From the IMG/VR virus record IMGVR_UViG_3300032335_000499: a stretch of DNA of 64,000 bases. One strand, 5' to 3'. Origin of the DNA: a virus (lineage: Duplodnaviria; Heunggongvirae; Uroviricota; Caudoviricetes). Numbering within the stretch: the first letter of the stretch is position 1; each line of letters begins with the position of its first letter. Shown one piece after another: positions 18,469 to 36,227 of this stretch. The notes below the pieces were generated by a model. It ran no database searches, had not been told where the DNA came from, and was given only the letters and a program-made list of their open reading frames with translations. Made by a program: the position numbers and the translations under genes.

Positions 18469-18543
18469 TGGAGCGGATGATGGGATTCGAACCCACGACC
18501 TTCTGCTTGGCAAGCAGAAGCTCTACCCCTGAGCTACATCCGC
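18469..18543 (-). tRNA. tRNA-Gly(GCC)
   Basis: Cloverleaf read by eye: GCGGATG acceptor, GGTTCGAATCC T-arm, anticodon loop TTGCCAA, CCA encoded. Confidence 0.75.
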
Positions 18544-18668
18544 GCTCTAACTTATAGACACATACGTCCTGCACAGCTGGATAGGCATTTATCGTCTTTG
18601 ACAGCAGTCCTAGTATGTATAATGATATGTGCCGTCCCCGGAATGTTTCACATAACATCGTCTAACTC

Positions 18669-18742
18669 TGGAGCGGAATGCGGGAATCGAACCCGCCTAG
18701 CTAGCTTGGAAGGCTAGTGCATTACCACTATGCTAATCCCGC
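18669..18742 (-). tRNA. tRNA-Gly(TCC)
   Basis: T-arm GGTTCGATTCC; anticodon loop CTTCCAA. Confidence 0.7.
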
Positions 18743-18752
18743 ATTCTATAAT

Positions 18753-18828
18753 TGGTTGCGCAGAGGAGAGTCGAACTCCTAGCGATAGGTTATGAGCCTA
18801 TCATGTTACCGTTACACTACCGCGCGCC
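18753..18828 (-). tRNA. tRNA with CAT anticodon (Met / fMet / Ile-lysidine), copy 1
   Basis: anticodon stem ATAGG/CCTAT loop CTCATAA; T-loop TTCGACT; acceptor pairing imperfect in my reading. Confidence 0.55.
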
Positions 18829-19298
18829 ATTTTTCTTTAAAACTATTTTGAAGAACACACTATAAACTCTACTGCGTAATATGCCGAAACGCCCATAGAG
18901 TCAGTCTTTCGGTCCACACTGTAGTGTATTCATCAAAATAGTCTAATATTATTTAGTCTATTTATAACCCACCCTGAGATTACGGGCTTGTAGCGAGAGT
19001 CTTTGGTCATTACCGAATCCCTTGCGAGGACCGTTCTACCGTTATCCACTAGGGCTTTTTACAGTCACCTAGTAACTCTCAATGCTGCCTTTTTTAGAGT
19101 CTGGCGTTTGACTCGTCGCATATGTCTACTCGACCATCTATCTTTCGCTAGCCTTGCGGGCTATTCAAGGTCGCTAAACCCTTACGCTTTCTTTCCGATC
19201 AATCAGTTCAGCCTTGCGAGCCTTCCTGAACCACATTCCCTTGCGAGTGAGGTATTAAGCATCTTTAAACATATACCGGAGCAGACTTTCGCTTTTGT

Positions 19299-19369
19299 AG
19301 TGCAATACAGGAGTTGAACCTATATCGATTCCTTATTATGGAATTGACTTACCATTAGTCAAATTGCGA
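19299..19369 (-). tRNA. degenerate tRNA-like element (intact D, anticodon and T arms; loop ATAATAA, acceptor with 2 mismatches) - possible pseudo-tRNA
   Basis: GACT/AGTC D-stem, ATTCC/GGAAT anticodon stem, ATAGG-TTCAACT-CCTGT T-arm; no CCA. Confidence 0.25.
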
Positions 19370-20194
19370 ACCTACCAAGATGTGCTGCTCCAGTTGCTCC
19401 ATATCTTGTTAGATACAGAATACAACACACCTTATGTCTTTTGCCTTGCGGGCTACTCAACCATACTTCACGAATCCAGCACAGCACCCTCAGGTCTATA
19501 CTTTCTTCGCTTGTATTGCTATCTTGCCTTTCCTTGCGAGGTCAGACTCAATAACTACCTGTTAACTTTCAATATTCATCAGTTTAGCTGTACTTCGTGA
19601 GGGCGCTAACCCTCTTAACTCCTCAGCGTTGCCCTGGAGCCTATCCCTTTCGGGACGTTCGTACCTGACTTACTACCTACCGCCTTTCTACGGACGGGCC
19701 TTTCGGCTAGTTCAGGCTTGCATAGATGGACCATTGCTGGCGCAAGTTTATAGGAAACCTTGCTTTGACAGAGATTACTCCCTGCTACCCTAGTGAGGCT
19801 ATGCCCCCAATTTCTATTCAATTTTCAAAGAACAAAGACAATCTCTTGTCTTGATTTACTCATTATATCAAAGTTCGTAACGTTTGTCAAGAACTATTTC
19901 GCCTATTTGCAAAAAAAGTTTGGAAGAGAAAAAGTAAGTGATAGACAATGCAATACACAGCGACCCGACCGTACGGTCAAAGTCTACGGACACTAAACAC
20001 TACACAATCTGCAAAAATAACGTATCTCTAAGCGGCAACTCACAAATCTGAATAAAGCTTAGTTCATGCTATTATGGAGCGTTTCAAGCGCCTGATCGGT
20101 ACAGTATCTCCGATACCAGGGTGTCTACTCTCGTCTCTCTTTCTCTTCCTGGTAGCGTCCTCAAGATGGAGTCAGAAGGAACGCTACCAAACTC

Positions 20195-20757
20195 TTAGAT
20201 GATGTCCTCAGACTTGAGAACTTCAACTGTGCTTGTAGCAAGTTCAATTGTAGTGCGAACATTGGCTTCAAGCAACGCATCCTGGACAGCTTGCTTCTTC
20301 TTCTTAGCAAGTGAAACATTGTTTCGGAAGCTTTCCAAATCAGTTTCAGTAAAGATAGAAGTGCTTACTTCGCTTGAATGGAAGCTGTAGCTTTCACCCT
20401 CACGATTAGCAATCTTGTCAAGCTTACCGCTGATGACCTTAAGGTCAGTCTGAACATTTGCCTTAGCAAACGGTGCAAAGAACACGAGGTCCTTTTCAAT
20501 GCGGGCAAGATCGGCAAGAAGGTTGTCGATGTTGTTCTCTGCATTAGCAGTAGCAACCTTAGTGCGAATGTCATAGAGCGCGGAAATTAGATTCCAACGG
20601 CGCTGAACATTGCGGTCAAACTTCTGCTTAGTAAGTTCAATTTCCTGAGCAGGAGTCTGGAACTCGTTGATGCTAACATCAGCCTTAAATTCCAAACCCT
20701 TGAGGGCTTCGTTGATTAAAACTTGAAGTGCATTGGCTTTGCGTAGTGAAACTTGCA
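20195..20757 (-). CDS. hypothetical protein (start moved to MQVSLRKANAL; track N-terminus overlaps tRNA-Asp)
   Basis: AGAGGAAAGAA SD upstream of ATG ~20757. Confidence 0.45.
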
Positions 20758-20777
20758 TTTTTCTTTCCTCTATAAAA

Positions 20778-20854
20778 TGGCGACTCGTACGGGACTTGAA
20801 CCCGTGGCCTCTAGCGTGACAGGCTAGCGATCTAACCAACTGATCTAACGAGCC
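20778..20854 (-). tRNA. tRNA-Asp(GTC)
   Basis: anticodon stem CTAGC/GCTAG loop CTGTCAC; T-arm GGGTTCAAGTCCC. Confidence 0.7.
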
Positions 20855-20920
20855 ATTAAACTCTTTATATACTTCTTATAATGTATTCTAAAACGATAGT
20901 CAATCGTTTTGGGTAAACTT

Positions 20921-20995
20921 TGGTGACGCGGGGTAGAATTGAACTACCGACATGGAGCTTATGAGACTCCTGTTCTACCACTGAACTACCGCGCC
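20921..20995 (-). tRNA. tRNA with CAT anticodon, copy 2
   Basis: anticodon loop CTCATAA; T-arm GGTAGTTCAATTCTACC. Confidence 0.65.
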
Positions 20996-21020
20996 ATTAA
21001 TAAAGGGTGTGTCAAGGATT

Positions 21021-22238
21021 TTACCCCTTGACACAAACTACCTGCTTCAACGTATGAACGATTTCTACAAGGTCAGACTGTGCAGCCATAACTGCATCAA
21101 TGTCCTTGTACGCATTTGGCGTTTCGTCAATAACGTCTGCGTCCTTGCGGCACTCAACCCCTGCCGTAGCAGCGATATGGTCCTCAATAGTGAAACGCTT
21201 CTTCGCTTCGGTACGGCTCATAGAGCGTCCAGCACCGTGTGAACACGAACTGAACGATTCACGATTACCCTTGCCGCGAACGATGAATGACTTTGCACCC
21301 ATTGAACCAGGGATGATTCCCAGTTCGTCCTTCTTAGCTGACACTGCACCCTTACGAGTAAGCAGAATGTCTTCACCGAAGTGACGCTCATGCGATACAT
21401 AGTTGTGGTGACAGTTAACTGCCATCATTTCACTATAGAACGGCTTCGTAATTACTGACTTGATAGCAGCAATAGTTGCTTCCATCATCACTTCACGATT
21501 GCTACGAGCAAAACGCTGTGCCCAAGACACTGCTTGCATGTAGTCGTTGAAGTGGTCAGTACCTTCTGCTAGATAGGACAAGTCCATGTCTGGCAGATTG
21601 ATGAACCACTTACGCATATCCTGCTTAGCAAGTTCAATGAAGTAGGAACCGATACGATTACCTACACCACGAGAACCTGAGTGCAACATGATCCAAACAT
21701 AATCATCTTCATCAAGACAAATCTCTACGAAGTGATTGCCGGAACCAAGCGTACCTAAGTGATACGGAGCCCGTTCAGCAGCCTGACTAATCTTAGGATG
21801 CTTTGCTACAATTTCTGAAAGCACAGGTAAATGTGCAACAAACTTAAGTGCAACTGCATTAGAATAATCACTGAATGCACCACGGTCATTCTTGCCACCG
21901 TTATCAGTACGACCATGTGGGACTCGTGCTTCAATCGCAGAGCGAATGCCGAACAGGTTGTCGGGCAAATCTTCTGCACGAAGGTTAGTACGATGAGCCA
22001 TCATGCCGCAACCGATATCAACACCGACTGCTGCTGGAATAATTGCGCCCTTAGTCGGAATAACCGAACCAACAGTCGCACCCATTCCCCAATGAACGTC
22101 AGGCATAATTGCTACGTGCTTGTGAATGAAGGGCATAGCAGCAATATTGTCAAGCTGGGCGCGGGCTTGATCCTCAACGGACACGCCGTCAATCCATGCC
22201 TTAATAAGACCGCCCTTGTTTCCTTGAATTACTTGCAT
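21021..22238 (-). CDS. rtcB: RtcB-family RNA 3'-phosphate/2',3'-cyclic-phosphate ligase
   Basis: 405 aa; conserved RtcB blocks MPDVHWGMGATVGS, GCGMMA, HNYV, CSHGAGRSMSR; AGGAAG RBS. Confidence 0.8.
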   Translation of the reverse strand: MQVIQGNKGGLIKAWIDGVSVEDQARAQLDNIAAMPFIHKHVAIMPDVHWGMGATVGSVIPTKGAIIPAAVGVDIGCGMMAHRTNLRAEDLPDNLFGIRSAIEARVPHGRTDNGGKNDRGAFSDYSNAVALKFVAHLPVLSEIVAKHPKISQAAERAPYHLGTLGSGNHFVEICLDEDDYVWIMLHSGSRGVGNRIGSYFIELAKQDMRKWFINLPDMDLSYLAEGTDHFNDYMQAVSWAQRFARSNREVMMEATIAAIKSVITKPFYSEMMAVNCHHNYVSHERHFGEDILLTRKGAVSAKKDELGIIPGSMGAKSFIVRGKGNRESFSSCSHGAGRSMSRTEAKKRFTIEDHIAATAGVECRKDADVIDETPNAYKDIDAVMAAQSDLVEIVHTLKQVVCVKG

Positions 22239-22302
22239 AACTACTTCCTTTAAAAAATGGATGGGCAGTTTACCGTCTTACCCAGGACCCTGTTTTTAAA
22301 AT

Positions 22303-22396
22303 AGGGGGAAAGTAGGGACTTGAACCCTAATAACACCGCTGTCACGGCTGCTCTATGATGACAGTCATAAAGCTGTTACGCACCGTACCCTTCCCC
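22303..22396 (-). tRNA. type-II (long variable arm) tRNA-like gene with non-canonical anticodon arm; identity unresolved
   Basis: 8-bp-capable acceptor GGGGAAGG/CTTTCCCC, T-arm TAGGGTTCAAGTCCCTA, long extra arm; anticodon region TTTATGACTGTCATCATAG folds with 6- or 8-nt loop, not 7. Confidence 0.4.
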
Positions 22397-22402
22397 GTTA
22401 AC

Positions 22403-22478
22403 TGGTAGACGATGTAGGATTCGAACCTACGACCTAGGGATTAAGAGTCCCGCGCTCTACCGACTGAGCTAATCGTCC
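22403..22478 (-). tRNA. tRNA-Lys(CTT)
   Basis: anticodon loop CTCTTAA; T-arm GGTTCGAATCC. Confidence 0.65.
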
Positions 22479-22517
22479 ATATAACAACTTAGAAGAACAC
22501 TGTAGAACCGTCGTTCT

Positions 22518-22588
22518 ATAATACTACTGGATTCGAACCAGTTACTCGTCCTTTCGAGGCAGGAAGTCTCCAATGCTTCTCAGTATTC
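22518..22588 (-). tRNA. tRNA-like remnant (good acceptor/D/T arms, no foldable anticodon stem), 7-nt tandem duplication agtattc at 5' end
   Basis: GAAG/CTTC D-stem, ACTGG-TTCGAAT-CCAGT T-arm, but anticodon region TGCCTCGAAAGGACG does not pair. Confidence 0.25.
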
Positions 22589-22748
22589 AGTATTCATCTA
22601 AACTGTTACAAGCAACAAGAAGCCGGTGCACTTAGCAATTCAGCAATTTACGAAACACCATTCGGGGCTTCTCGTCACTTGATATATTCACTATAACGTA
22701 CTTCTTGTTGATTGTCAACCAAAAAATGACCTTTTTCAAAGATAATTG

Positions 22749-24251
22749 TTACCAGCCCTTAAACCAGTAACTAAGCACTGCCTCAGCAGGCTTGTTTCGG
22801 ATACTAGCTGAAAAATCGTAACAAGTATCATTAAGTGTGTCTTTTTTTCTAGGGTTATCCAAATAGTGATATCCCCAGCTAAATATTCCTTTTATGATCC
22901 CTGAACCATCCGACCTTTGCTCATTGACAATTTCAGCAGCAGATTGATAAATGTCAGCTTGCACCTGATAGTCTCTTGTCTTATTGTTAAATTCAGAGCA
23001 ACGTAACCCAGACTCTATATAATCACTTGAAACCAATCCAGTATGAACTGAAGGCGTTCCGATCATAAGAAGAATAGGAACCTTTGCAGAAGAAATCGAT
23101 GCAATATGTTTCTTAATGTCTTTAGTGAGTTTAGTGCGTGATTGGGCAGCATGTAGTGTTTCGTTATTATCAGGAATGATTGGATTATAGAGACTCAACC
23201 CAATCTCATCAAAAAGATCAATAAAAGCGGTTCGCTTATTAACATCAGAAATCCCAAGCAAGCCATTATATGAACCGTTGGTCATAGAAAAATAAGATAT
23301 TTTTCCAGTAAACCCAGCCTCCCTGATAGCTTTGATAAGTTCAATCCATCTAGAATTTCCCTTATTTACCATGTAGTCCATATTAAAACCAATTACAAGT
23401 CTTGTTGCACCAGCTTGTTGTGCTAAAGCTGCTCTATCAACTAGTATCCTCTTATATTCACTAAACCACCTATCCCAGAAGGGGTCATTATCAGAAAGTT
23501 GACTGATGGCAGAATAGAACTTTGGAACGTCCCATGGATCATTTCCGAGAGTATCTCCGGGATAGATTCCCATCATAACTGTAAAATCCATACCCCGTGA
23601 TCTGGCTAAGTTACCCATATCCAAAATCACTTGATTAGCTGGAAAATATTTACCGTACAACTCAACTGACCGAGAATTAACATTCATTGATTTAATGAAT
23701 GCAGAATCAGCATAAACAACATTATTTCCACCAATGCTCTTTATTCTGTCAAAGGTAGTGGGGAAATATCCTCCATTGTAATAATCCATCAGCCAACCGC
23801 CAGCATCGTGCGGAACAATTGCTTTTGTAAAGTTTGGCTGTCTATTAATCGTATTGGCTTTGTACAAGCCGAGTTGTATCGGCGTGCTATCGTGTGATGT
23901 GTATGGGTACCAAGTTGGTTGATACCCTAATTTGTTCACGGAAAGCTGAGAGTATTCGCCGGTAGACTTCGGCGTTTCAACATTGACTGTTTCTTGAGTT
24001 AGACTTGCAATAGCTGACGTAACCGATGCTGGATGAGAGACTGTTGACAATCTTTCATATGTCTGTATATCTACAGGTGTTGTCTGAGGAACAGCAGGAG
24101 CTGGAGTAGGCAGCGCAACTGATGTCGTTGTTGGTATTTGTACAAAATTTGAACTAGTAGAAGACGTATCGCCGCCGCAACCACTGAGTGCTAATACTCC
24201 AGCAGCCGCCGCCATCATCAAAGTTGTTTTGTTCATACACGCTACTTTCAT
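22749..24251 (-). CDS. large secreted lipoprotein (start moved; lipobox LALSGC), possible polysaccharide-active enzyme
   Basis: Signal peptide plus lipobox; Thr/Pro-rich linker then ~420-aa globular domain; track N-terminus LVTHFAIVKYKL is translation of promoter cassette. Confidence 0.45.
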   Translation of the reverse strand: MKVACMNKTTLMMAAAAGVLALSGCGGDTSSTSSNFVQIPTTTSVALPTPAPAVPQTTPVDIQTYERLSTVSHPASVTSAIASLTQETVNVETPKSTGEYSQLSVNKLGYQPTWYPYTSHDSTPIQLGLYKANTINRQPNFTKAIVPHDAGGWLMDYYNGGYFPTTFDRIKSIGGNNVVYADSAFIKSMNVNSRSVELYGKYFPANQVILDMGNLARSRGMDFTVMMGIYPGDTLGNDPWDVPKFYSAISQLSDNDPFWDRWFSEYKRILVDRAALAQQAGATRLVIGFNMDYMVNKGNSRWIELIKAIREAGFTGKISYFSMTNGSYNGLLGISDVNKRTAFIDLFDEIGLSLYNPIIPDNNETLHAAQSRTKLTKDIKKHIASISSAKVPILLMIGTPSVHTGLVSSDYIESGLRCSEFNNKTRDYQVQADIYQSAAEIVNEQRSDGSGIIKGIFSWGYHYLDNPRKKDTLNDTCYDFSASIRNKPAEAVLSYWFKGW

Positions 24252-24267
24252 TTTTAGCTTATATTTT

Positions 24268-24296
24268 ACTATAGCAAAATGGGTAACCAATGTCAA
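24268..24296 (-). promoter_or_regulatory. sigma70-like promoter TTGACA-N17-TATAGT (gcaaaatgggta subfamily)
   Basis: revcomp of actatagcaaaatgggtaaccaatgtcaa. Confidence 0.5.
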
Positions 24297-24311
24297 CCGG
24301 TTTTATAGATT

Positions 24312-24387
24312 TGGTGGACACTCCGGGGCTCGAACCCGGGACCAACAGGTTAAAAGCCCGTTGCTCTACCTACTGAGCTAAGTGTCC
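24312..24387 (-). tRNA. tRNA-Lys(TTT)
   Basis: acceptor GGACACT/AGTGTCC, anticodon loop CTTTTAA. Confidence 0.7.
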
Positions 24388-24393
24388 GTTGTA

Positions 24394-24468
24394 TGGTGTG
24401 CATGGCAGGATTTGAACCTGCGACCTACGCCTTATCAGGGCGGTGCTCTACCGCTGAGCTACACGCAC
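24394..24468 (-). tRNA. tRNA-Ile(GAT)
   Basis: anticodon loop CTGATAA; T-arm GGTTCAAATCC. Confidence 0.7.
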
Positions 24469-24474
24469 GTAAAC

Positions 24475-24556
24475 TGGAGCACCGAGTAGGAATCGAACCT
24501 ACTTCACTTGCGTAGCGGATTTGCAGTCCACCGCATTCCCAATCTGCCATCGGTGC
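24475..24556 (-). tRNA. tRNA-Cys(GCA), unusually long (12-nt) variable loop
   Basis: anticodon stem GTGGA/TCCGC loop CTGCAAA; T-arm GTAGGTTCGATTCCTAC. Confidence 0.6.
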
Positions 24557-24626
24557 ATTAAACTTTATATATTAGTTATATCAACATTCAGGACGAATGT
24601 CAACCGTTTTTATGTTATTAGCGAAA

Positions 24627-25775
24627 TTAAATTACACGAATTAATGATGCTGCCTCGCGGGCGCTTTCAAGTGTATCACCTAGTACAACACCCATGCGAC
24701 GATATTTACGCACAAATGGTTTACCAAAAATTCTAACATCAATTCCTTCAATGTTCATAGCATCTTCGATGCCTTCATATTTTGGTGCATGATCGCTATT
24801 ATCTTGATACAGTACTACAGCACTTGCGCCACCGTTGCAATTCAAATCTGTGGCGTTAATCGGCAATCCTAATACTGCACGAGCATGAAGGTCAAACTCG
24901 GAATACCGTTGACTACGCAATGTAACCATGCCAGTATCATGTGGGCGAGGGCTAAGTTCGCTAAAGATAACTTCGTCATCCCTGATGAAGAACTCAACTC
25001 CAAACAGTCCAGCACCACCAAGATCATCAGTGATAATCTCAGCCATAGCTTGCGCCTGGGCAATTATTGAATTAGTATACTCTACGTTGTTAGGGATAAA
25101 CGGTTGCCAGCTATACTGGTAATCGCCGCGTTCCTGAACATGACCTATTGGTTCACAAAAAAGTGTAGGACCCGTATGTTGCTTAATAGTCAGCAATGTG
25201 ATTTCAGCATCAAACTTAATGAACTCCTCAACGATAACCTTCTTACGATCACCGCGCATATTGTTCACAGCATAATCCCATGCAACTTGCGCTTCCTCTG
25301 AATTGTGAACTACACTCTGTCCCTTGCCAGAACTTGACATTACTGGCTTAACTACGCAGGGAAAACCGATATTTAATACTGCCTGAGTAAACTCATCTAC
25401 ATTCTCTGCATAACCAAACTTTGCAGTACGCAGACCTAATTCATCGGCGCGGTCACGAATCTTATCGCGGTTCATAGTAAGATTGACTGCACGAGCAGAA
25501 GGAACTACTTGAATTCCGTTTGCTTCATAGTCATAAAGAACTTCCGTTGCTATTGCTTCAATCTCAGGAACAATAATATCTGGCATCCAAGCGTCTATAA
25601 TTGTATCCAATTGGTTTGAGTCAAGCATATTAATAACAACATTACGGTCAGCAACCTGCATTGCAGGAGCATCGGTGTAGCTGTCAACTGCGATAACAAA
25701 ATGTCCAAGACGTTTAGCAGAAATAACAAATTCCTTACCAAGTTCACCTGAACCCAATAGCATAATAGTTTTCAT
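24627..25775 (-). CDS. purT: formate-dependent phosphoribosylglycinamide formyltransferase (PurT)
   Basis: Strong block matches to E. coli PurT: LLGSGELGKE, IVPEIEAIAT, VVKPVMSSSGKGQ, LFGVEFF, IFSELSPRPHDTGM; start moved to MKTIML (track extension is tRNA-Ser read-through). Confidence 0.75.
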   Translation of the reverse strand: MKTIMLLGSGELGKEFVISAKRLGHFVIAVDSYTDAPAMQVADRNVVINMLDSNQLDTIIDAWMPDIIVPEIEAIATEVLYDYEANGIQVVPSARAVNLTMNRDKIRDRADELGLRTAKFGYAENVDEFTQAVLNIGFPCVVKPVMSSSGKGQSVVHNSEEAQVAWDYAVNNMRGDRKKVIVEEFIKFDAEITLLTIKQHTGPTLFCEPIGHVQERGDYQYSWQPFIPNNVEYTNSIIAQAQAMAEIITDDLGGAGLFGVEFFIRDDEVIFSELSPRPHDTGMVTLRSQRYSEFDLHARAVLGLPINATDLNCNGGASAVVLYQDNSDHAPKYEGIEDAMNIEGIDVRIFGKPFVRKYRRMGVVLGDTLESAREAASLIRVI

Positions 25776-25793
25776 ATTTTCTCCAGAAGTGTT

Positions 25794-25885: not shown

Positions 25886-25895
25886 GTATTCTTAT

Positions 25896-28907: not shown

Positions 28908-28913
28908 ACTTAA

Positions 28914-29306: not shown

Positions 29307-29385
29307 CTCATAAAATCCTTTCCAATATTAATTTTACTGTCAGATAGCGAATGATTATTTATCATTATATACGTAGATTTAAAAA

Positions 29386-29460
29386 TGGTACCTCGTGACG
29401 GGATTGAACCGCCGACCTTATCCGTGTAAAGGATCTGCTCTACCGCTGAGCTAACGAGGC
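29386..29460 (-). tRNA. tRNA-Val(TAC)
   Basis: anticodon loop TTTACAC; T-arm GGTTCAATCC. Confidence 0.65.
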
Positions 29461-29470
29461 ACAAAATCAG

Positions 29471-29785: not shown

Positions 29786-29800
29786 TCTTCTTTCAAAAAA

Positions 29801-29877
<77 letters not shown>

Positions 29878-29892
29878 AAAACTTTAATTACT

Positions 29893-30096
29893 TTACTTTG
29901 AATCTGCTTGAATGGCAGAACCAGTAGCATCTACCTTTTCGCCAAGAACAACTACTTCTCCCTTTTCACATTCAACAGTTACATCACCACGTTGAATGGC
30001 AGTTGCGAAACCGTAACCAGTTAACCCGCCAGCAATTAAAAGTCCGATAACTACACCGGCTGCAAACTTAGCTGCATCAATTAAAAATTTCTTCAT
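29893..30096 (-). CDS. small membrane/secreted protein
   Basis: hydrophobic N-terminus; ORF. Confidence 0.3.
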   Translation of the reverse strand: MKKFLIDAAKFAAGVVIGLLIAGGLTGYGFATAIQRGDVTVECEKGEVVVLGEKVDATGSAIQADSK

Positions 30097-30125
30097 ATTC
30101 TACATTATCCTATATGCTTGTTATT

Positions 30126-30201
30126 TGGTGGAGAATAGCGGGATCGAACCGCTGACCTCCTGAATGCAAATCAGGCGCTCTCCCATCTGAGCTAATTCCC
30201 C
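30126..30201 (-). tRNA. tRNA-Ala(TGC)
   Basis: anticodon stem CCTGA/TCAGG loop TTTGCAT. Confidence 0.7.
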
Positions 30202-30244
30202 ATGAAACTATTTATAACTTACTTACTCATCAATCAAAAAAGAA

Positions 30245-30321
30245 TGGTGACCCTGGCAGGGCTCGAACCTGCAACCCCAAGTTTAGAAGACTCGTACTCT
30301 ATCCAGTTGAGCTACAGGGCC
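30245..30321 (-). tRNA. tRNA-Arg(TCT)
   Basis: anticodon loop CTTCTAA. Confidence 0.7.
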
Positions 30322-30403
30322 AATCTCTTGTTATGAATTAACTATATCAATAATATGAAAAGAAGTCAAGAGCTTTTGGGTACTGCTCTTGACTTCTTAT
30401 AGA

Positions 30404-30480
30404 TGGTGCCCCCAGTAGGATTCGAACCCACGACATCCTGATTACAAATCAGGCGCTCTGGCCAACTGAGCTATAAGGGC
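30404..30480 (-). tRNA. tRNA-Thr(TGT)
   Basis: anticodon loop TTTGTAA. Confidence 0.7.
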
Positions 30481-30488
30481 ATTAAGTT

Positions 30489-30563
30489 TGGCTCCCTAAG
30501 ATGGATTCGAACCACCGACCAATTGATTAACAGTCAACTGCGCTACCGCTGCGCCATTAGGGA
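30489..30563 (-). tRNA. tRNA-Asn(GTT)
   Basis: acceptor TCCCTAA/TTAGGGA; anticodon loop CTGTTAA. Confidence 0.7.
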
Positions 30564-30614
30564 ATAAACTCTATAAACTATTTAATCTTGTTATAGCAGC
30601 TTGACAAATAAATG

Positions 30615-30809
30615 TCAAGCCGCTAATTGCGCTACGCAGTAATACCGAACCTCTATGTTTATAGAAGCTTCAAGCGCATACTTGTATCTCTCACCTGTAT
30701 CCTTGCACATTTCAATAGACTCTTGTGGCATATTGTCTTGCCACAAGAGTTCTACCTTCTTAGTGCTAGGATTCATATAGAATACATAAGCTATCAGTAG
30801 TATTTTCAT
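30615..30809 (-). CDS. small hypothetical protein
   Basis: ORF, promoter-like tgtcaag upstream. Confidence 0.3.
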   Translation of the reverse strand: MKILLIAYVFYMNPSTKKVELLWQDNMPQESIEMCKDTGERYKYALEASINIEVRYYCVAQLAA

Positions 30810-30840
30810 ATACTACTCTTAACATATTATTAACTATATG

Positions 30841-31407
30841 TCAAGCCGCTAATTGAACAATTCTACTGTGTTTGGGCACACCGCTCAACAGATACTCCAT
30901 TTGGTCAGCAAGGATGCTGCGATTCTGGAGAATCATGTTTTCGTAGTGGTTGGGCGCATACGGAATGTATAACAGTTCCATACCTGATTGCTTCAAACTC
31001 TTACAGCCCTTCTTTTGGTTGCAAGGAATACAAGCAGTAACAACATTAGTCCATTCGTCAATACCACCGTGGTACCTAGGTACAATGTGGTCTCGACTTA
31101 ACTTAGCGTGATTGTTAATGTGAACACCACAGTAACCACAAATGTTACGATCACGAGCGAACAGAGTTTTGTTAGTCAAGATAACCTTGTTGTGCTTCTT
31201 GAAGTTGAAACCCTCACCTTTAATAGCGATAATGCTAGGAGTTTCAAGATAACTCTGCGTACCATCAATTCGATAGCCGCCTCGATATCTAGCAATTACA
31301 TCGCCCAGTGTCCAACCTACCAAGTTCTTTGCGTGATACGAAATTGCTTCGTCGTGGGAGACCCACGTTCGCGGGGTACCCGATATGTCTAAGGCTAGTA
31401 CTGCCAT
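30841..31407 (-). CDS. HNH endonuclease
   Basis: CGYCGVHINNHAKLSRDHIVPRYHGGIDEWTNVVTACIPCNQKKG (HNH with flanking Cys pairs). Confidence 0.65.
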   Translation of the reverse strand: MAVLALDISGTPRTWVSHDEAISYHAKNLVGWTLGDVIARYRGGYRIDGTQSYLETPSIIAIKGEGFNFKKHNKVILTNKTLFARDRNICGYCGVHINNHAKLSRDHIVPRYHGGIDEWTNVVTACIPCNQKKGCKSLKQSGMELLYIPYAPNHYENMILQNRSILADQMEYLLSGVPKHSRIVQLAA

Positions 31408-31503
31408 AAAAACTCCTATTTCTTTCTATATTTAATTCAACTGATATTCCTTAGTGTCAGTTTACATTACATCAGATTGACCTCATTGTCAACTAGAATC
31501 TGC

Positions 31504-31589
31504 TGGTGCCCAAGAAAAGACTCGAACTTTCACGGGCTTTCGCCCACAACGACCTCAACGTTGCGTGTCTACCATTCCACCACCTGGGC
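31504..31589 (-). tRNA. tRNA-Leu(GAG)
   Basis: anticodon stem CAACG/CGTTG loop TTGAGGT; long variable arm. Confidence 0.65.
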
Positions 31590-31593
31590 ATAT

Positions 31594-31685
31594 TGGTACT
31601 CCTGCTCGGATTCGAACCGAGACCGATCCCTAATCTGGGCTTCGGGATATAAATCCGACCGCTCTAACCATTAAGCTACAGGAGT
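31594..31685 (-). tRNA. tRNA-like gene with ~17-nt expansion of the anticodon region (possible TAT anticodon, tiny intron, or pseudo-tRNA); acceptor identical to CAT tRNA at 27894..27968
   Basis: ACTCCTG/CAGGAGT acceptor, GCTT..GAGC D-arm, perfect CTCGG-TTCGAAT-CCGAG T-arm, 38 nt between D- and T-arms. Confidence 0.35.
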
Positions 31686-31686
31686 A

Positions 31687-32355
31687 TTAAATTTTAAATG
31701 TGAATGCAAAAGATACAGTGTTGTCTTCAATCCGATCCTTTGTATACAAGTCTTGAATTGAGAAACTTGTTTTCTCACTCAATTTGTATTTGATTTCTGC
31801 TTTATTCTGAATGAAGGTTCTAGAACCCTGCTCAATCATGAACTTATTAGATACAGATAGTGCTTTGCTTAGATTATGACTAATCCATACACTTTCACGA
31901 ACTACTACATCGCTGTATCCACCCGTGCCGTGCTTGTAACCAACGCTAAGTTCGTTTGATATCTTAGTCTTATCATTCTTTACGATTCTGAAACCGTGAC
32001 CAATGCTATAAACTGCTTGATCTTCTGAGAATGTTCTTGGATCGTGACGATAGCGAACACCTGCTTGAACATAGTGCTTAGGATGAATGTCCTGATTGAT
32101 TTTAGCAAATGCGTTAATCTGCTCTCTAGAAGTTACGCCGTTAGCACTCTTATAAAGAATGTCACTCTCAAATGAGTATTCTCTAGGGCCCGTGTCAGTA
32201 ACGTGCTTGAATGCTCCTGTCAAAACAATGTTATCGTCATTGATAACTGTTCCGCCTAATGAACCCGTTGTTTCTCTCTCAACCTGAGCATATGCAGGTA
32301 AAGAAAATAATAATGCTGCTGATAGTATAAGTGTTCTAAACATAGTAATCTCCAA
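31687..32355 (-). CDS. outer-membrane beta-barrel protein (OmpA/OmpW-like small porin family) with signal peptide
   Basis: Signal peptide ending AYAQ; alternating hydrophobic beta-strand pattern; C-terminal FTFKI. Confidence 0.5.
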   Translation of the reverse strand: MEITMFRTLILSAALLFSLPAYAQVERETTGSLGGTVINDDNIVLTGAFKHVTDTGPREYSFESDILYKSANGVTSREQINAFAKINQDIHPKHYVQAGVRYRHDPRTFSEDQAVYSIGHGFRIVKNDKTKISNELSVGYKHGTGGYSDVVVRESVWISHNLSKALSVSNKFMIEQGSRTFIQNKAEIKYKLSEKTSFSIQDLYTKDRIEDNTVSFAFTFKI

Positions 32356-32372
32356 ACTACTATTTAGCAGTT

Positions 32373-32458
32373 TGGTGCCCCGAGAGGGACTTGAACCCCC
32401 ACGCCTTTTGGGCAGAAGATTTTGAATCTTCCGCGTCTACCGATTCCACCATCGGGGC
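32373..32458 (-). tRNA. tRNA-Leu(CAA)
   Basis: anticodon stem GAAGA/TCTTC loop TTCAAAA; long variable arm. Confidence 0.7.
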
Positions 32459-32561
32459 AAATTGGTATCGGTTCAGCAGTTCAGGTTCTAGTTATAGTGA
32501 CCCTCATAGTGTGCCTTGAAGCATCGTTCTAGACCGATGACTTCTTCCGATTTCTGAATTT

Positions 32562-32646
32562 TGGTGCGGCTGAAGGGACTCGAACCCCCACACCTTACGA
32601 TACTGGTACCTAAAACCAGGGCGTCTACCAATTCCGCCACAGCCGC
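32562..32646 (-). tRNA. tRNA-Leu(TAG)
   Basis: anticodon stem CTGGT/ACCAG loop TTTAGGT; long variable arm. Confidence 0.7.
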
Positions 32647-32799
32647 ATGTTAAATGTATTTACTCGCCGTAACTAGTGTCTCAAATTTAGTTACTGATAC
32701 TAACTCAATAGTACTGCTACGGACATCAGGTACACTCCTGTTTGGTTTGAGAATGAAACAGGGTCACATATGGTCACCGTACACACACGAGTAAAATTA

Positions 32800-32875
32800 T
32801 GGTGCCTCCCCAGGGAATCGAACCCCAACCTCTGCTTCTTCAGAGCAGCGCGCCAACCATGTACGCCAGAGAGGC
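32800..32875 (-). tRNA. tRNA-Phe(GAA)
   Basis: anticodon stem CTGCT/AGCAG loop CTGAAGA. Confidence 0.7.
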
Positions 32876-32881
32876 ATTAAA

Positions 32882-33508
32882 CTATTTTATACCTGGATCA
32901 ATCAAACCTAATTGACTGAATGCCCAAGCTCTTTCATTGCATCTATTACAAGTGCCACATGGTGTATCAATATCATAAACACAGCTATGCGTCAATGTAA
33001 ATAGCTTTTCCAATCCTAACTGAATAATTAGCTGCACTACATGTGCTTTGGTTAGGTCTTTTAGTGGATAGTTGAACATTTCAGAATTTACAGGTACATA
33101 TGGTTTAGGTACATTATGCAATGCATGTTCTTCCAATGTCTGTATTATTCCTATATAGATCCTATTACGATTAGTTTTATATAACTCACGCATGCCGGCT
33201 GCTACTTGTAATTCACTATCTATTTCATCTATATCAAGTTTAGTAGCATACTGTTGCTCAATACCCAAACTCTCATGAACATAGTCAATGACAGGTTGAG
33301 CATATCGTGATGAACCATCGTTCCTAATTATAGTATAAGGTATAACGCTATATCTATCATCAGATAATGTCAGCTTCCTTATCAAATAATACAGCAATGC
33401 ACTATCTAACCCACCACTAACTAACACTCCTATTCTTCTATGGAGCGTTAATTTTACTTTTACCGGTCTAAGGTCACCATTAATATTTGATTCTAATCTG
33501 ATAGCCAT
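32882..33508 (-). CDS. QueC-like PP-loop ATPase (7-cyano-7-deazaguanine synthase family) with C-terminal Cys4 zinc site
   Basis: LVSGGLDSALL PP-loop plus C-terminal HSCVYDIDTPCGTCNRCNERAW resembling QueC CxxC...C zinc ribbon. Confidence 0.5.
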   Translation of the reverse strand: MAIRLESNINGDLRPVKVKLTLHRRIGVLVSGGLDSALLYYLIRKLTLSDDRYSVIPYTIIRNDGSSRYAQPVIDYVHESLGIEQQYATKLDIDEIDSELQVAAGMRELYKTNRNRIYIGIIQTLEEHALHNVPKPYVPVNSEMFNYPLKDLTKAHVVQLIIQLGLEKLFTLTHSCVYDIDTPCGTCNRCNERAWAFSQLGLIDPGIK

Positions 33509-33593
33509 ATAATATTTAGCCTAAAGAAAAAGAAGGTTACTTTTTAAATCTTCGCAACTTATCCTGCGTAAATACATGATAACGGAGAATAAA

Positions 33594-34403
33594 ATGAAAA
33601 TAATAGTGGTTAGTACTGGTAGAGCTAGATGTACTTTGCTAGCAAAATATCTTCACATCTTACATGACGATTTAGAATTTTGCGGAGAGTTTTACAATGC
33701 ACAGCAGGCAAAACTTGACAGGCAAGTTGAAAAATTTGCAGTAACTCCCTCAATCAGAAAAGACTTTTTAACAGATCCTACCGGCGAAAACATTGACTTA
33801 GTTAAGAGTACTAATGCACTATTTGATAAAGAAAACTTTTTAGTAAAATTAATGGCACTATGTCTTGACTTTGATAAAAATCAAGACCCTTCAGTATTCA
33901 GACTTGCAGAATACGATCAAATACACTTTATTGAACGACATGATTTTTTTGAACAATGTTGTAGTTGGGAAGTATCAACGAAAGAAAAAGTATTTCATTT
34001 AACTAACAATCCCGAAATAGAAAAAGAATTTAGTAACATAAGACAACGAAAATATAAAATATCACCGGAACGAATAGAACATGCTGCAACTTTTGTTGAT
34101 CTTTACTTAAAAATAAAAAAGTATGCAACAGATAACAATCTGCCATATACCGTTCATACCTATGAAAGTGCTAAACAGTTTGACAAAACACAAAATGAAT
34201 TAGTTGATGCAAAACTTGATTATAGCGAGTTAATAACTAACTATCACCTGAAGGAAGAAGTTAATAAACTATTCAATAAATATTTTTCGTATGACGACAT
34301 AACAAGTGATCCAAAAGCGTTTATGGCAGCGATTAGTCAAGTCGAAGGACTTCGTTCTTTACAAAGTTTTGCAGATAAGATGGCTGCTAAATGGAAAAAG
34401 TAA
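33594..34403 (+). CDS. hypothetical protein, possibly P-loop sulfotransferase-like (Stf0-type)
   Basis: Start moved to MKIIVV (GGAG 8 nt upstream); VSTGRARCTLL resembles sulfotransferase 5'-PSB-like loop; weak. Confidence 0.35.
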   Translation: MKIIVVSTGRARCTLLAKYLHILHDDLEFCGEFYNAQQAKLDRQVEKFAVTPSIRKDFLTDPTGENIDLVKSTNALFDKENFLVKLMALCLDFDKNQDPSVFRLAEYDQIHFIERHDFFEQCCSWEVSTKEKVFHLTNNPEIEKEFSNIRQRKYKISPERIEHAATFVDLYLKIKKYATDNNLPYTVHTYESAKQFDKTQNELVDAKLDYSELITNYHLKEEVNKLFNKYFSYDDITSDPKAFMAAISQVEGLRSLQSFADKMAAKWKK

Positions 34404-34413
34404 ATATTTAATA

Positions 34414-34488
34414 TGGTAGCCCGAACGGGTTCCGACCCCGCTTCTCTGCCTTGAAAGGGCAGTGTCCTAGCCACTAGACGACCGGGCC
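34414..34488 (-). tRNA. tRNA-Glu(TTC)
   Basis: Closely resembles E. coli tRNA-Glu (TCGTCTAGTGGCTAGGACACTGCCCTTTCAAGGCAG); anticodon loop CTTTCAA. Confidence 0.7.
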
Positions 34489-34562
34489 ATAATCTCTCGG
34501 GGCCTGCACAGCCCCTTCCCCCGTAACAATTGTGCAGTATCCCAGGGAGTACCTCTATAAAT

Positions 34563-34639
34563 TGGTCGGGGTAGCCGGATTTGAACCGACGACCACTTGT
34601 CCCCCAGACAAGTGCGCTACCTGGCTGCGCTATACCCCG
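34563..34639 (-). tRNA. tRNA-Pro(GGG)
   Basis: C1-G72 acceptor CGGGGTA/TACCCCG; anticodon loop CTGGGGG. Confidence 0.7.
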
Positions 34640-35114
34640 TTGATGTGGCCGCCCGGCAAGTTTGTTCCGTCCCCCTGCGAACAACATAAACAGTGAAGCA
34701 CAAGGTGAGCCGGGCGATAATATGGCGCGCCCGCTTATTTTCTATGCTGGGGCTACTTTCGGAAGGTAGTCCATGCATGCGGACGCATAAGAATGGAGCC
34801 AGCGGTAACGGTATGTTCGTCACTACTATAGTGGGTATCACTCGCCGGCATAAGTTAAATTCCGAGAAACTGCATTACTAGCTTGAAGGGCCAGACATGT
34901 TCCCAGAGAAAGTGTTCTAGTGGATAGCTGATAGTTACGCCAATCCAGAATCTATAATCAGTAATCAAATTTGAACACGAATTCATACACCGAACCAGTA
35001 GTCCAGTCTTCTTGTCTTCGTGATAATGTGGTTCATGGTTTTTCATACAATGTCTATCTCTTTGTTCATATACTAGTATACTATATATCAAGTAGCTTGT
35101 CAACCTAATATGTA

Positions 35115-35189
35115 TGGTACACCCTACTGGGCTTGAACCAGTGACCTTCTGGATGTCGACCAGATGCTCTACCACTGAGCTAAGGGTGC
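35115..35189 (-). tRNA. tRNA-Val(GAC)
   Basis: anticodon loop TCGACAT. Confidence 0.65.
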
Positions 35190-35196
35190 ATAAAAC

Positions 35197-35274
35197 TGGG
35201 GTGAAAGACGGGACTCGAACCCGCGACATTCGGCATCACAAGCCGACGCTCTAACCAACTGAGCTACAATCACC
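35197..35274 (-). tRNA. tRNA-His(GTG) with G-1:C73
   Basis: anticodon stem TCGGC/GCCGA loop TTGTGAT; extra 5' G pairing with discriminator C. Confidence 0.65.
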
Positions 35275-35280
35275 ATAAAC

Positions 35281-35354
35281 TGGCATACGCTGTAGGAGTC
35301 GAACCCACGCTAACTGGGTTGGAACCAGTCGTGCTACCGTAACACTTAGCGTAC
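35281..35354 (-). tRNA. tRNA-Trp(CCA), copy 2 (different sequence from copy 1)
   Basis: anticodon stem ACTGG/CCAGT loop TTCCAAC. Confidence 0.55.
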
Positions 35355-35584
35355 ATGAAATTAGATTCTAGGCGCGGTTGATGTAGCCTCTACCTTGATA
35401 GGGCTTCTTATCTACCGGTGCAGACCTAGGAATATCTTTAAATACGATCTTAATATTCGAAAGTTTATATATTTCTGCTAGCAATAATTCTTTGCCCATG
35501 AATGCCGATCGGTTTTCAGGCGTGTCGGGCACAAACATTACGCATTCTACAGATTCGCTTCTCATATTATCATATTCCTTATAA

Positions 35585-35662
35585 TGGTGCAACCAGAAGG
35601 ATTCGAACCTTCAACCTTCGGTTTCGTAGACCGACGCTCTATCCAGTTGAGGCTATGGCTGC
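35585..35662 (-). tRNA. tRNA-Arg(ACG)
   Basis: anticodon stem TCGGT/ACCGA loop CTACGAA. Confidence 0.7.
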
Positions 35663-35669
35663 ATTAACT

Positions 35670-35746
35670 TGGTGGTCCCTGAGGGATTCGAACCCCCGAC
35701 ATTCTGTTTCGAAGACAGACGCTCTATCCGGCTGAACTAAGAGACC
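35670..35746 (-). tRNA. tRNA-Arg(TCG)
   Basis: anticodon loop CTTCGAA. Confidence 0.65.
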
Positions 35747-35756
35747 AAATAAGAAA

Positions 35757-35832
35757 TGGTGCTGTTGGAGAGGATTGAACTCTCGACCTCTTCATTACCA
35801 ATGAAGTGCTACTACCACTGAGCTACAACAGC
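35757..35832 (-). tRNA. tRNA-Thr(GGT)
   Basis: anticodon stem CTTCA/TGAAG loop TTGGTAA. Confidence 0.7.
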
Positions 35833-36025
35833 ATATTACAATATTGCGCTGCTTTCTTTTCGGCAGTGCTTAATTTTTTATATCGTTTACTTTCGTCAAC
35901 GACCTTCATGAAGGAAGCATATCTTACATAATAGCCTTGTTCGTCTTTGCAAACAGTGGCACCTTTTCTGCTACCAGATAAGCCCCAATATGCTTTAATT
36001 ACTATCATACTTCCTCACAAAATTT

Positions 36026-36099
36026 TGGATGCCCCACAAGGACTCGAACCTCGATTGACGGAGTCAAAGTCCGCTCTCTTACCATTAGAGGATGGGGCA
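36026..36099 (-). tRNA. tRNA-Gln(TTG)
   Basis: U1-A72 acceptor TGCCCCA/TGGGGCA; anticodon loop CTTTGAC. Confidence 0.65.
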
Positions 36100-36151
36100 A
36101 CATCAAAGCAAGTGTTATTATATATGTTTTGTCAAACATTGTCAAATATTT

Positions 36152-36227
36152 TGGATGCCCGACTAGGGCTCGAACCTAGAACCTACTGAGTCAGAGTCAG
36201 TTGATCTACCAATTGATCTATCGGGCA
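36152..36227 (-). tRNA. tRNA-Gln(CTG)
   Basis: U1-A72 acceptor TGCCCGA/TCGGGCA; anticodon loop CTCTGAC. Confidence 0.7.

Follow-up and report, generated by a model that had tools for sequence, protein, structure and literature searches.

A tRNA island with GOLLD RNA, an RtcB ligase and an extra-armed tRNA(UAU) in a probable large phage

Why should a virus carry transfer RNA (tRNA) genes for every amino acid, and among them an RNA ligase? The question is raised by a tRNA island in IMG/VR virus record IMGVR_UViG_3300032335_000499, from which a stretch of 64,000 nucleotides (nt), here called the window, was analyzed. The island runs from an outermost consensus promoter to an intrinsic terminator after its last tRNA gene (18422-37090, minus strand). 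The answer favored here, with good though not full confidence, is that the island is a translation-support module of a probably large, virulent-type phage lineage, providing both tRNA supply and tRNA repair. tRNA islands with GOLLD RNA, HNH genes, and tRNA-Ile(UAU) have already been described, and the present island joins that kind; what may be new is an extra-armed tRNA(UAU) and a lineage-specific RNA with NCCA ends.

The tRNA gene set and its transcription units

ARAGORN at default settings made 37 tRNA calls between 18469 and 36227, 37 of 37 being minus-strand calls; the remaining ~46 kilobases (kb) of the window gave no call. Rfam placed 36 matches to its tRNA family RF00005 at the same positions (41.2-74.3 bits, E 2.6e-5 to 2e-14; gathering cut-off 29 bits). 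Thirty-five of the 37 calls are canonical, have an encoded 3' CCA, and are supported by Rfam too; the two non-canonical calls are an element nested in the GOLLD RNA (19299-19369, no CCA) and an aberrant element at 22304-22395. With the addition of a tRNA-Tyr found at relaxed ARAGORN settings, the final tally is 36 CCA-bearing genes within 17.8 kb on one strand, comprising many isotypes: all 20 amino acids and an initiator, marked by C1xA72. The genes are given from first to last; the basis of each is ARAGORN, the Rfam score shown, and the encoded CCA, unless the line says otherwise.

36152-36227, minus: tRNA-Gln(CTG), 65.6 bits
36026-36099, minus: tRNA-Gln(TTG), 58.3 bits, own promoter at 36117-36145
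35757-35832, minus: tRNA-Thr(GGT), 66.3 bits
35670-35746, minus: tRNA-Arg(TCG), 64.6 bits
35585-35662, minus: tRNA-Arg(ACG), 59.0 bits
35281-35354, minus: second tRNA-Trp(CCA), 52.2 bits, conserved in relatives
35197-35274, minus: tRNA-His(GTG), 63.4 bits, encoded G-1 (35274) opposite C73
35115-35189, minus: tRNA-Val(GAC), 66.3 bits
34563-34639, minus: tRNA-Pro(GGG), 63.2 bits
34414-34488, minus: tRNA-Glu(TTC), 48.8 bits
32800-32875, minus: tRNA-Phe(GAA), 51.7 bits
32562-32646, minus: tRNA-Leu(TAG), 52.7 bits
32373-32458, minus: tRNA-Leu(CAA), 52.1 bits
31594-31685, minus: tRNA(UAU) of 92 nt with a long extra (variable, V) arm, 54.9 bits, A73-CCA
31504-31589, minus: tRNA-Leu(GAG), 49.1 bits
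30489-30563, minus: tRNA-Asn(GTT), 68.7 bits
30404-30480, minus: tRNA-Thr(TGT), 70.0 bits
30245-30321, minus: tRNA-Arg(TCT), 62.7 bits
30126-30201, minus: tRNA-Ala(TGC), 66.2 bits
29801-29877, minus: tRNA-Pro(TGG), 68.2 bits
29386-29460, minus: tRNA-Val(TAC), 60.9 bits
28832-28907, minus: tRNA-Trp(CCA), 68.0 bits
28635-28720, minus: tRNA-Leu(TAA), 57.1 bits, own promoter at 28784-28812
27975-28059, minus: tRNA-Tyr(GTA), type II, A73-CCA, relaxed ARAGORN only
27894-27968, minus: tRNA(CAT) with C4-G69 and C5-G68, 66.2 bits, acceptor stem that of the UAU tRNA; probably tRNA-Ile2 (lysidine)
27047-27136, minus: tRNA-Ser(TGA), 55.1 bits
25794-25885, minus: tRNA-Ser(GCT), 53.3 bits
24475-24556, minus: tRNA-Cys(GCA), 54.4 bits, 82 nt
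24394-24468, minus: tRNA-Ile(GAT), 73.9 bits
24312-24387, minus: tRNA-Lys(TTT), 71.1 bits
22403-22478, minus: tRNA-Lys(CTT), 72.6 bits
20921-20995, minus: elongator tRNA-Met(CAT), 66.9 bits
20778-20854, minus: tRNA-Asp(GTC), 68.7 bits
18753-18826, minus: initiator-type tRNA(CAT), C1xA72 mismatch, 56.8 bits
18669-18742, minus: tRNA-Gly(TCC), 68.4 bits
18469-18543, minus: tRNA-Gly(GCC), the island's last gene, 74.3 bits

By Watson-Crick pairing and G:U or inosine wobble, these tRNAs read 57 of the 61 sense codons. An earlier reading of the letters (the sequence-only reading) had counted at least 35 tRNAs on one strand between 18469 and 36227, with about 30 as its own lower limit, had assigned them to all 20 amino acids, and had called them a near-complete private decoding set. 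The numbers from both programs agree with this, Tyr being recovered only at relaxed settings, and the codon coverage within a phage-like genome is that of a near-complete set. Its list of isoacceptors is correct for all amino acids except leucine, for which it had five genes; there are four (TAA, CAA, TAG, and GAG), and the fifth is likely the long-armed tRNA with anticodon TAT.

Relatives of the window are IMG/VR viral contigs retrieved with RtcB and DUF481 anchors and labeled with L numbers. A collinear island with the same gene order is present in at least 20 of them. The relative contig L096 + L001 has 43 tRNAs plus the nested one, and compared with it the window is without a second Asn, Ser-GGA, Pro-CGG, Ala-GGC, Thr-CGT, and a second Glu. 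When each window tRNA was compared with its ungapped homologues from related contigs, 175 variable stem pairs were found to stay pairable in every homologue and 13 to break; two-sided changes occur in 150 variable stem pairs. Because the varying pairs mostly stay pairable, the genes, whose mature products are predicted, are under selection for the cloverleaf.

The tRNA-Tyr (85 nt) has no Rfam tRNA match, even at E<0.1. At minimum energy it folds into a type II cloverleaf with loop CUGUAAA and A73-CCA. Its place, immediately 5' of the CAT tRNA, is taken in relatives by a normally scoring Tyr, from which it differs by compensatory stem changes. Two tRNA-like elements flank Lys-CTT upstream of rtcB:

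22518-22588, minus: Phe(GAA)-like relic, mismatched in its stems and lacking CCA, shared only with L007 (relaxed ARAGORN)
22304-22395, minus: aberrant type-II-like tRNA-like element between Lys-CTT and rtcB (ARAGORN)

The element at 22304-22395 has an 8-bp anticodon stem, a 6-nt loop (CUGUCA), and no CCA; no Rfam match was obtained even at E<0.1, it is absent from all relatives, and IMG/VR holds no second copy. It is a strain-specific insertion and probably not a working tRNA. Assignment as Tyr, Sec, or allo-tRNA was rejected on the 7/5 geometry, the 6-nt loop, and the lack of CCA, Rfam match, and copies elsewhere. Together the two elements are cassettes gained and lost between near-identical phages. 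Two further observations concern individual tRNAs. The tRNA-Cys has an enlarged variable region of 13 nt; its length is 82 nt in L001, L005, and L009 too, as against 77-78 nt for the copies of L007 and L102. Two related viral contigs (L010:3734-3808 and L102:719-793) have a tRNA that ARAGORN labels Pyl (anticodon CTA, amber-reading); it may be a suppressor tRNA and does not occur in the window.

Exact matches to TTGACA-N17-TATANT number 12 in the window against 0.12 expected; 12 of 12 are minus-strand sites, seven of them within the island. Their first bases are at 8472, 8836, 12293, 13616, 19890, 22718, 24296, 28812, 35103, 36145, 37090, and 47843 (span 8444-47843). An upstream T-run/GG element recurs at several of them, and those ahead of protein genes have a leader in common. 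The leader is near-identical at 8472, 8836, and 47843 (taattataagctgagaaaacggagata), and the spacers of the promoters at 24296 and 47843 are almost identical. The elements that delimit the units of the island are:

37062-37090, minus: outermost consensus promoter; small open reading frames (ORFs) come next, then the first tRNA
36117-36145, minus: consensus promoter, 12/12, between the two Gln tRNAs
35075-35103, minus: consensus promoter; downstream are a 63-aa ORF and then the NCCA-ended RNA element
28784-28812, minus: consensus promoter upstream of tRNA-Leu(TAA)
24268-24296, minus: consensus promoter upstream of the GH113-like lipoprotein gene
22690-22718, minus: consensus promoter of the unit Phe-like relic, Lys-CTT, 22304-22395, rtcB, Met, Asp, ORF187
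19862-19890, minus: GOLLD promoter TTGACA-17-TATAAT, 12/12, TG extended
18422-18455, minus: predicted intrinsic terminator, a GC-rich hairpin and U-run 13 nt past the last tRNA

Since seven perfect or near-perfect consensus promoters are followed by a terminal hairpin and U-run, the island is predicted to consist of seven sigma-70-type transcription units closed by a terminator.

GOLLD, the extra-armed tRNA(UAU), and other RNA elements

Genes for GOLLD RNAs lie close to tRNA islands of phages and prophages, and in some cases the linker holds a tRNA (PMC12286853). The sequence-only reading was without the GOLLD RNA of this island, which ties the island to the described class of tRNA arrays. This RNA, its nested element, and an adjoining noncoding segment are located as follows:

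18971-19853, minus: GOLLD RNA, ~880 nt (Rfam RF02032, promoter, and conservation)
19299-19369, minus: GOLLD-nested tRNA-like element, anticodon AAT ('Ile AAT'), 41.2 bits, 5-bp acceptor stem, no CCA
19891-20194, minus: conserved folding noncoding segment of 304 nt between ORF187 and the GOLLD promoter

The match to RF02032 at 18971-19433 covers model positions 1-416 of 416 (203.2 bits, E 6e-56; gathering cut-off 150 bits), the model describing the conserved 3' domain only; GOLLD RNAs of relatives score 151-213 bits. The 5' domain (19434-~19812, ~380 nt) is conserved in L001, L005, and L009 with local indels, and in the same three contigs the promoter and leader are kept ahead of GOLLD. Because a perfect extended promoter lies ~430 nt upstream of the model match and the intervening sequence is conserved, the transcript is predicted to be ~880 nt long, with its start taken from the promoter; this agrees with GOLLD RNAs in general, which measure around 800 nt and have a 5' domain less conserved than the 3' one.

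The nested tRNA-like element is within the variable linker of the GOLLD model, and thus this GOLLD has the expected context, inside a tRNA island and with a tRNA-like element in its linker. The anticodon arm of the element has been exchanged wholesale between relatives, with fully compensatory stems (AAU in the window, CUU in L001, GAU in L005 and L009). As read from the alignment, the copy in L005 and L009 appears to end in ACCA; the window copy is without CCA. By homology with the solved member, GOLLD here would form an RNA-only cage with the tRNA-like element in the linker; the 14-mer nanocage (D7) is shown for env-38 only (PMC12286853). The 304-nt segment upstream of the GOLLD promoter has a minimum free energy of -101.7 kcal/mol (z = -4.78 versus shuffles), is 90-92% conserved in L001, L005, and L009, and may be a 3' untranslated region, a terminator region, or a further noncoding RNA.

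The tRNA(UAU) at 31594-31685 combines a class I, Ile-like body with a hairpin variable arm (loop CAGAUUA) and A73-CCA. Its D-arm has a 4-bp stem (GCUU/GAGC) and a class I loop, it has the pairs C4-G69, C5-G68, and U12-A23, and its acceptor stem is identical to that of the CAT tRNA at 27894. Bacterial class II tRNAs have a 3-bp D stem. The tRNA(UAU) shares the hairpin variable arm with that class and has neither the class II D-arm nor a Leu, Ser, or Tyr anticodon; its D-arm type, acceptor pairs, and UAU anticodon exclude a fifth tRNA-Leu or a class II tRNA of Leu, Ser, or Tyr type. An allo-tRNA is excluded by a 7-bp acceptor and 5-bp T stem in place of 8/4 or 9/3. The four canonical arms covary in ten relatives, with a covariation score of 0.435 versus 0.18 for shuffled and at most 0.10 for slid alignments.

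A motif scan found this type of gene in 105 viral contigs, many of them unrelated and up to 333 kb in length. The loci of such genes, in viral contigs and in a cultured phage, are:

31594-31685, minus, in the window; L083-L105; L187-L288; L289:5999-6089: tRNA(UAU) with long V arm

The 105 contigs yield 49 distinct sequences, all typed Ile(TAT), in which the anticodon UAU is invariant (49 of 49). A73-CCA is found in 48, C4-G69 in 43 of 48, and C5-G68 in 41 of 48. The V arm is a stem of 2-5 bp closing a 7-nt loop whose conservation is partly ascertained by the search pattern of the scan; position 2 covaries (TA 21, CG 19, GC 8, AT 1). A similar arm is present on a 91-nt tRNA-Ile(TAT) of Levilactobacillus phage ENFP1, a cultured phage, in which the gene is annotated as tRNA-Ile without comment; no description of an extra-armed tRNA(UAU) was found in the searchable literature. 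Among 102 contigs no protein gene consistently adjoins the tRNA; HNH genes are the commonest neighbors (26 of 102), and within the present lineage the DUF481 gene is always directly upstream. Ordinary short tRNA(UAU) genes exist at other loci as well.

The nearest analogues of the phage tRNA(UAU) are nev-tRNA(UAU) and allo-tRNA(UAU), which have in common with it a long variable arm and an anticodon for the AUA codon. Nematode nev-tRNA is eukaryotic and Leu-charged (PMC3333845); bacterial allo-tRNA has a 12-bp acceptor branch, 8/4 or 9/3, and Ser identity (PMC5389517; Mukai et al.). In contrast to both, the phage tRNA has 7/5 geometry, an Ile-like class I D-arm, C4-G69, U12-A23, and A73. The extra arm could confer a private identity, for example by allowing efficient charging in spite of U34 or by being recognized by a modification enzyme. 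Alternatively, it could protect the tRNA from a host nuclease or, on the pattern of nematode nev-tRNA(UAU), cause AUA to be read as a different amino acid.

Further structured segments precede tRNA genes in two of the units:

34723-34849, minus: structured RNA candidate of two modules, (a) 34849-~34793 and (b) 34786-34723
34646-34716, minus: third NCCA module, 8-bp closing stem and GCCA, only in the window, L081, and L089
22600-22684, minus: hairpin leader of ~85 nt directly past the 22718 promoter, ahead of tRNAs and rtcB

The NCCA segment (34646-34849) is GC-rich and is located between the small ORF of the 35103 promoter and Pro-GGG. Each module is closed by an acceptor-like stem of 7-8 bp followed by N-CCA, and none is a cloverleaf. 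At least 17 relatives have modules 1 and 2 (~135 nt), with 85-98% conservation and in every case a few nt 5' of the tRNA that follows. By RNAalifold the consensus has 35 pairs, 8 with compensatory changes; a further alignment is model-fitted and contains two sub-threshold hits, and its covariation numbers are taken as an upper bound. Neither Rfam families (E<0.1) nor ARAGORN models, the mitochondrial one among them, gave a match to the element, and it was not recovered outside the lineage by a covariance model or a motif scan. The tRNA region of phage T4 makes RNAC and RNAD, small stable RNAs of unknown role (PMC3014915), which are a precedent for the NCCA-ended RNAs. The hairpin leader at 22600-22684 is kept in L001, L005, L007, L009, L011, L082, and L084.

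These elements suggest a tentative proposal, which we regard as possible and rather on the doubtful side: tRNA(UAU) would be an undescribed, phage-borne, Ile-type class in which a class I body has acquired a V arm with a conserved CAGAU-containing loop; separately, the NCCA modules and the GOLLD cassette would indicate that such islands make non-tRNA RNAs dependent on tRNA processing. A distinct phage tRNA(UAU) class, if true, has a bearing on how AUA can be decoded in the absence of lysidine and on the rules of tRNA identity, and it may also concern the evasion of immunity directed at tRNAs.

Protein genes, relatives, and the role of the island

The protein genes of the island, with auxiliary genes from elsewhere in the window on the last line, are:

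34855-35046, minus: 63-aa ORF downstream of the 35103 promoter
33576-34403, plus: the island's sole plus-strand ORF, 275 aa, no family match
32882-33508, minus: QueC-like PP-loop protein, below family cut-offs
31687-32355, minus: DUF481 outer-membrane-type protein
30841-31407, minus: HNH endonuclease (Pfam)
29471-29785, minus: DUF6626 protein
28914-29306, minus: S-adenosylmethionine decarboxylase-like protein, SpeH type
27183-27878, minus: class I S-adenosylmethionine-dependent methyltransferase (Methyltransf_24)
26624-27028, minus: cREC (cyclic-phosphate-processing receiver) domain protein (Pfam PF20274)
25896-26624, minus: ferredoxin-NADP reductase-like (Fpr-like) flavoprotein, family level only
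24627-25775, minus: PurT, formate-dependent glycinamide ribonucleotide transformylase (NCBIfam NF006766 equivalog, 538.8 bits, cut-off 339)
22749-24236, minus: predicted lipoprotein, 495 aa, with GH113-like domain
21021-22238, minus: RtcB RNA ligase, 405 aa (PF01139, 438.5 bits, residues 28-405 against profile 1-426)
20195-20758, minus: ORF187, 187 aa, no assigned function, conserved upstream of GOLLD
44374-45270, 48190-49335, 42267-43253, and 53067-57109, minus: RimK-like glutamate ligase, MetK, GT4 glycosyltransferase, and class I ribonucleotide reductase (RNR) alpha and beta

The accessory genes named in the sequence-only reading are borne out by Pfam and NCBIfam, and the RNA ligase that it had placed among the tRNAs is RtcB, which is inside the island together with cREC. 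It had also explained several ORF N-termini as read-through of tRNAs; the trimmed starts closely match independent gene calls on an identical contig, those of PurT and the methyltransferase being off by a few codons. Its arrangement of sub-clusters separated by single accessory genes is roughly right, except that several gaps hold two or three genes, noncoding RNAs, or promoters. The auxiliary genes outside the island, with PurT and the SpeH-like and Fpr-like proteins within it, make up a rich auxiliary metabolic load.

Accessory ORFs vary between relatives (RtcB, cREC, PurT, HNH, and DUF481 among them), and tRNA-like cassettes come and go. Because the tRNA order is conserved while accessory ORFs and HNH genes vary, the island is a stable tRNA backbone that doubles as a landing zone for cargo. 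RNR and PHROG matches to virion-structural and tail-fibre-like proteins, the structural matches being weak, give the window its phage character; it is taken to be from an uncultivated phage of a virulent-type lineage, and probably a large one, since related contigs reach 105-111 kb. A megablast search with the island returned only tRNA- and rtcB-sized fragments and no close cultured relatives, tblastn with the 958-aa protein gave no match to cultured relatives, and the virion-structural protein has remote matches only (28-38% identity). No match came from a host search of 185,579 species genomes with the DUF481 anchor. The nearest cellular homologues of RtcB are in Caulobacteraceae (68-75%), with no tRNA arrays nearby. 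Caulobacter-type Alphaproteobacteria generally have a tRNA-His with A73 and no G-1, and the G-1/C73 of the window tRNA-His argues weakly against such a host.

If the island is a module for tRNA supply and repair, host RNA polymerase would transcribe its units early, and host RNase P and 3' nucleases would cut out the tRNAs, for which CCA addition would not be needed. Host synthetases would charge them, because no aminoacyl-tRNA synthetase was seen in the window. The outcome would be a decoding set independent of the host tRNA pool, with AT-leaning phage genes still being translated if the host's tRNAs were ill-matched, were degraded, or were cleaved by anticodon nucleases. Cut tRNAs would be resealed by RtcB, possibly with help from cREC at 2',3'-cyclic phosphate ends. 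Published work supports a role of phage tRNAs against defences that target tRNA (PMC10264068, PMC11555353, PMC11464382), and cREC is a predicted 2',3'-cyclic-phosphate-processing domain that is linked to RNA ligases in jumbo phages (PMC7824862). As judged from gene content, RtcB with cREC fits the repair of nuclease-cut tRNAs, and the set appears to fit a stand-in for a host pool that is damaged or depleted better than the topping up of a few rare codons, because it is near-complete and includes readers of rarely used codons.

Several points weigh against this role. The link of RtcB to tRNA repair is made through family and position only, and expression, processing, and charging are predicted from the sequence. 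GCC, GCU, UCC, and UCU have no dedicated reader in the window, making the set not fully host-independent; relatives cover these four codons by Ala-GGC and Ser-GGA. The tRNA-Tyr is sub-threshold and has an altered T-loop (AUCGAUA, U54 to A). Finally, there is no capsid or terminase gene in the window, and the identification as a phage comes from the IMG/VR membership of relatives and from weak structural-protein matches.

Compensation for codon usage is the classical explanation of phage tRNAs (PMC10264068, PMC11025619), and alone it would have the island serve codons that are frequent in the phage genes (41% GC) and rare in a host of different composition, with no role in defence or repair. 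The phage genes do favor A/U-ending codons; AUA has a 20% share among the Ile codons, and the window encodes two or three tRNAs that read it. However, the set is near-complete rather than enriched for a few rare codons and also covers codons seldom used by the phage (CGG 4%, GGG 5%, CUC and CUG 7% each), and an RNA ligase and a cyclic-phosphate-processing domain are within the island; we therefore consider codon compensation alone unlikely. It is more improbable still that the island is a selfish or decaying cassette zone, in which tRNAs hitch-hike with HNH and other mobile cargo, many of them redundant or on the way to pseudogenes, with little benefit to the phage. Cassettes do turn over among near-identical relatives (22304-22395, the Phe-like relic, and six tRNAs being present or absent), degenerate tRNA-like relics are found in the island, and HNH genes are the commonest neighbors of tRNA(UAU), as noted above; yet the order of about 36 tRNAs is strictly conserved, their stems change compensatorily, all 36 keep CCA and canonical loops, and strong promoters drive them.

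Least probable, and to be given very little weight, is a tRNA array of the Mycobacterium type on a bacterial chromosome or plasmid, or a prophage remnant, in place of an infectious phage genome. Bacterial chromosomes do carry tRNA arrays with GOLLD, HNH, and tRNA-Ile(TAT) (PMC6582537), and the want of identified capsid and terminase genes would suit this origin. All close relatives, however, are viral contigs from IMG/VR, with lengths up to 111 kb; RNR, virion-structural proteins, tail-fibre-like proteins, and a dozen early promoters of like style occur in the window; the nearest cellular RtcB genes have no tRNA arrays beside them; and a search of 185,579 species genomes with the DUF481 anchor gave no close copy. 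The supply-and-repair module thus remains the preferred account of the island.

Comparison with known systems

The closest parallels in composition are mycobacterial clusters of 32-37 tRNAs with GOLLD containing a nested pseudo-tRNA, an HNH gene, and tRNA-Ile(TAT) (PMC6582537); examples are the '32-tRNA cluster' of M. aubagnense, M. abscessus M24, as well as M. conceptionense MLE (PMC6582537; Morgado et al. 2020 via PMC12286853). These arrays resemble the present island in having more than 30 clustered tRNAs along with those three elements, and a phage origin is presumed for them. They differ in being on actinobacterial chromosomes, whereas the window belongs to viral contigs with 41% GC, sigma-70 promoters, and Shine-Dalgarno sites; the window adds RtcB and cREC, metabolic cargo, and the long extra arm on tRNA-Ile(UAU). 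An array known from several genomes, with GOLLD, a promoter map, and a conserved order, is useful for asking why near-complete tRNA sets are kept and what GOLLD does; GOLLD here has its own strong promoter and a nested tRNA cassette that is swapped between strains.

Among cultured phages, DNA similarity to the GOLLD core of the window is confined to alphaproteobacterial jumbo phages, the phiCbK group of Caulobacter siphoviruses. Caulobacter phage phiCbK (L186, NC_019405) has a GOLLD at 9029-9515 (165 bits) that GenBank leaves unannotated, although the tRNA-like element nested in it is entered there as 'tRNA-Gly'; other tRNAs adjoin. A permuted transfer-messenger RNA (tmRNA; 71 bits) is beside it at 8202-8520. 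The group shares GOLLD with a nested element, but phiCbK has no gene-level relatedness to the window elsewhere, and in the 18-kb stretch examined it has a few tRNAs and the permuted tmRNA around GOLLD and no block of the 36-gene type.

In number of tRNAs the island was thought, in the sequence-only reading, to be among the largest reported for phages, a ranking that does not stand: complete huge-phage genomes have up to 67 tRNAs (PMC7162821), the C1 mycobacteriophage Rizal has 36 (PMC10264068), and the island's own relatives have 43. Huge phages and Rizal likewise have dozens of clustered tRNAs, read as giving independence from the host pool or protection from tRNA-targeting defences. The window differs in belonging to a separate lineage, in having no synthetase seen in it, and in combining the cluster with GOLLD and RtcB.

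Phage T4 offers a further parallel. Its tRNAs number eight. T4 has an Rnl1/polynucleotide kinase pathway for tRNA repair, in which a phage RNA ligase mends anticodon-nuclease damage (PMC3014915; PMC10264068). T4 and the window thus both have a phage-encoded RNA ligase and a tRNA cluster that also yields, or in the window would yield, small stable non-tRNA RNAs; T4, however, uses ATP-grasp ligases and not RtcB, and the NCCA-ended RNAs of the window have no known sequence relation to RNAC or RNAD.

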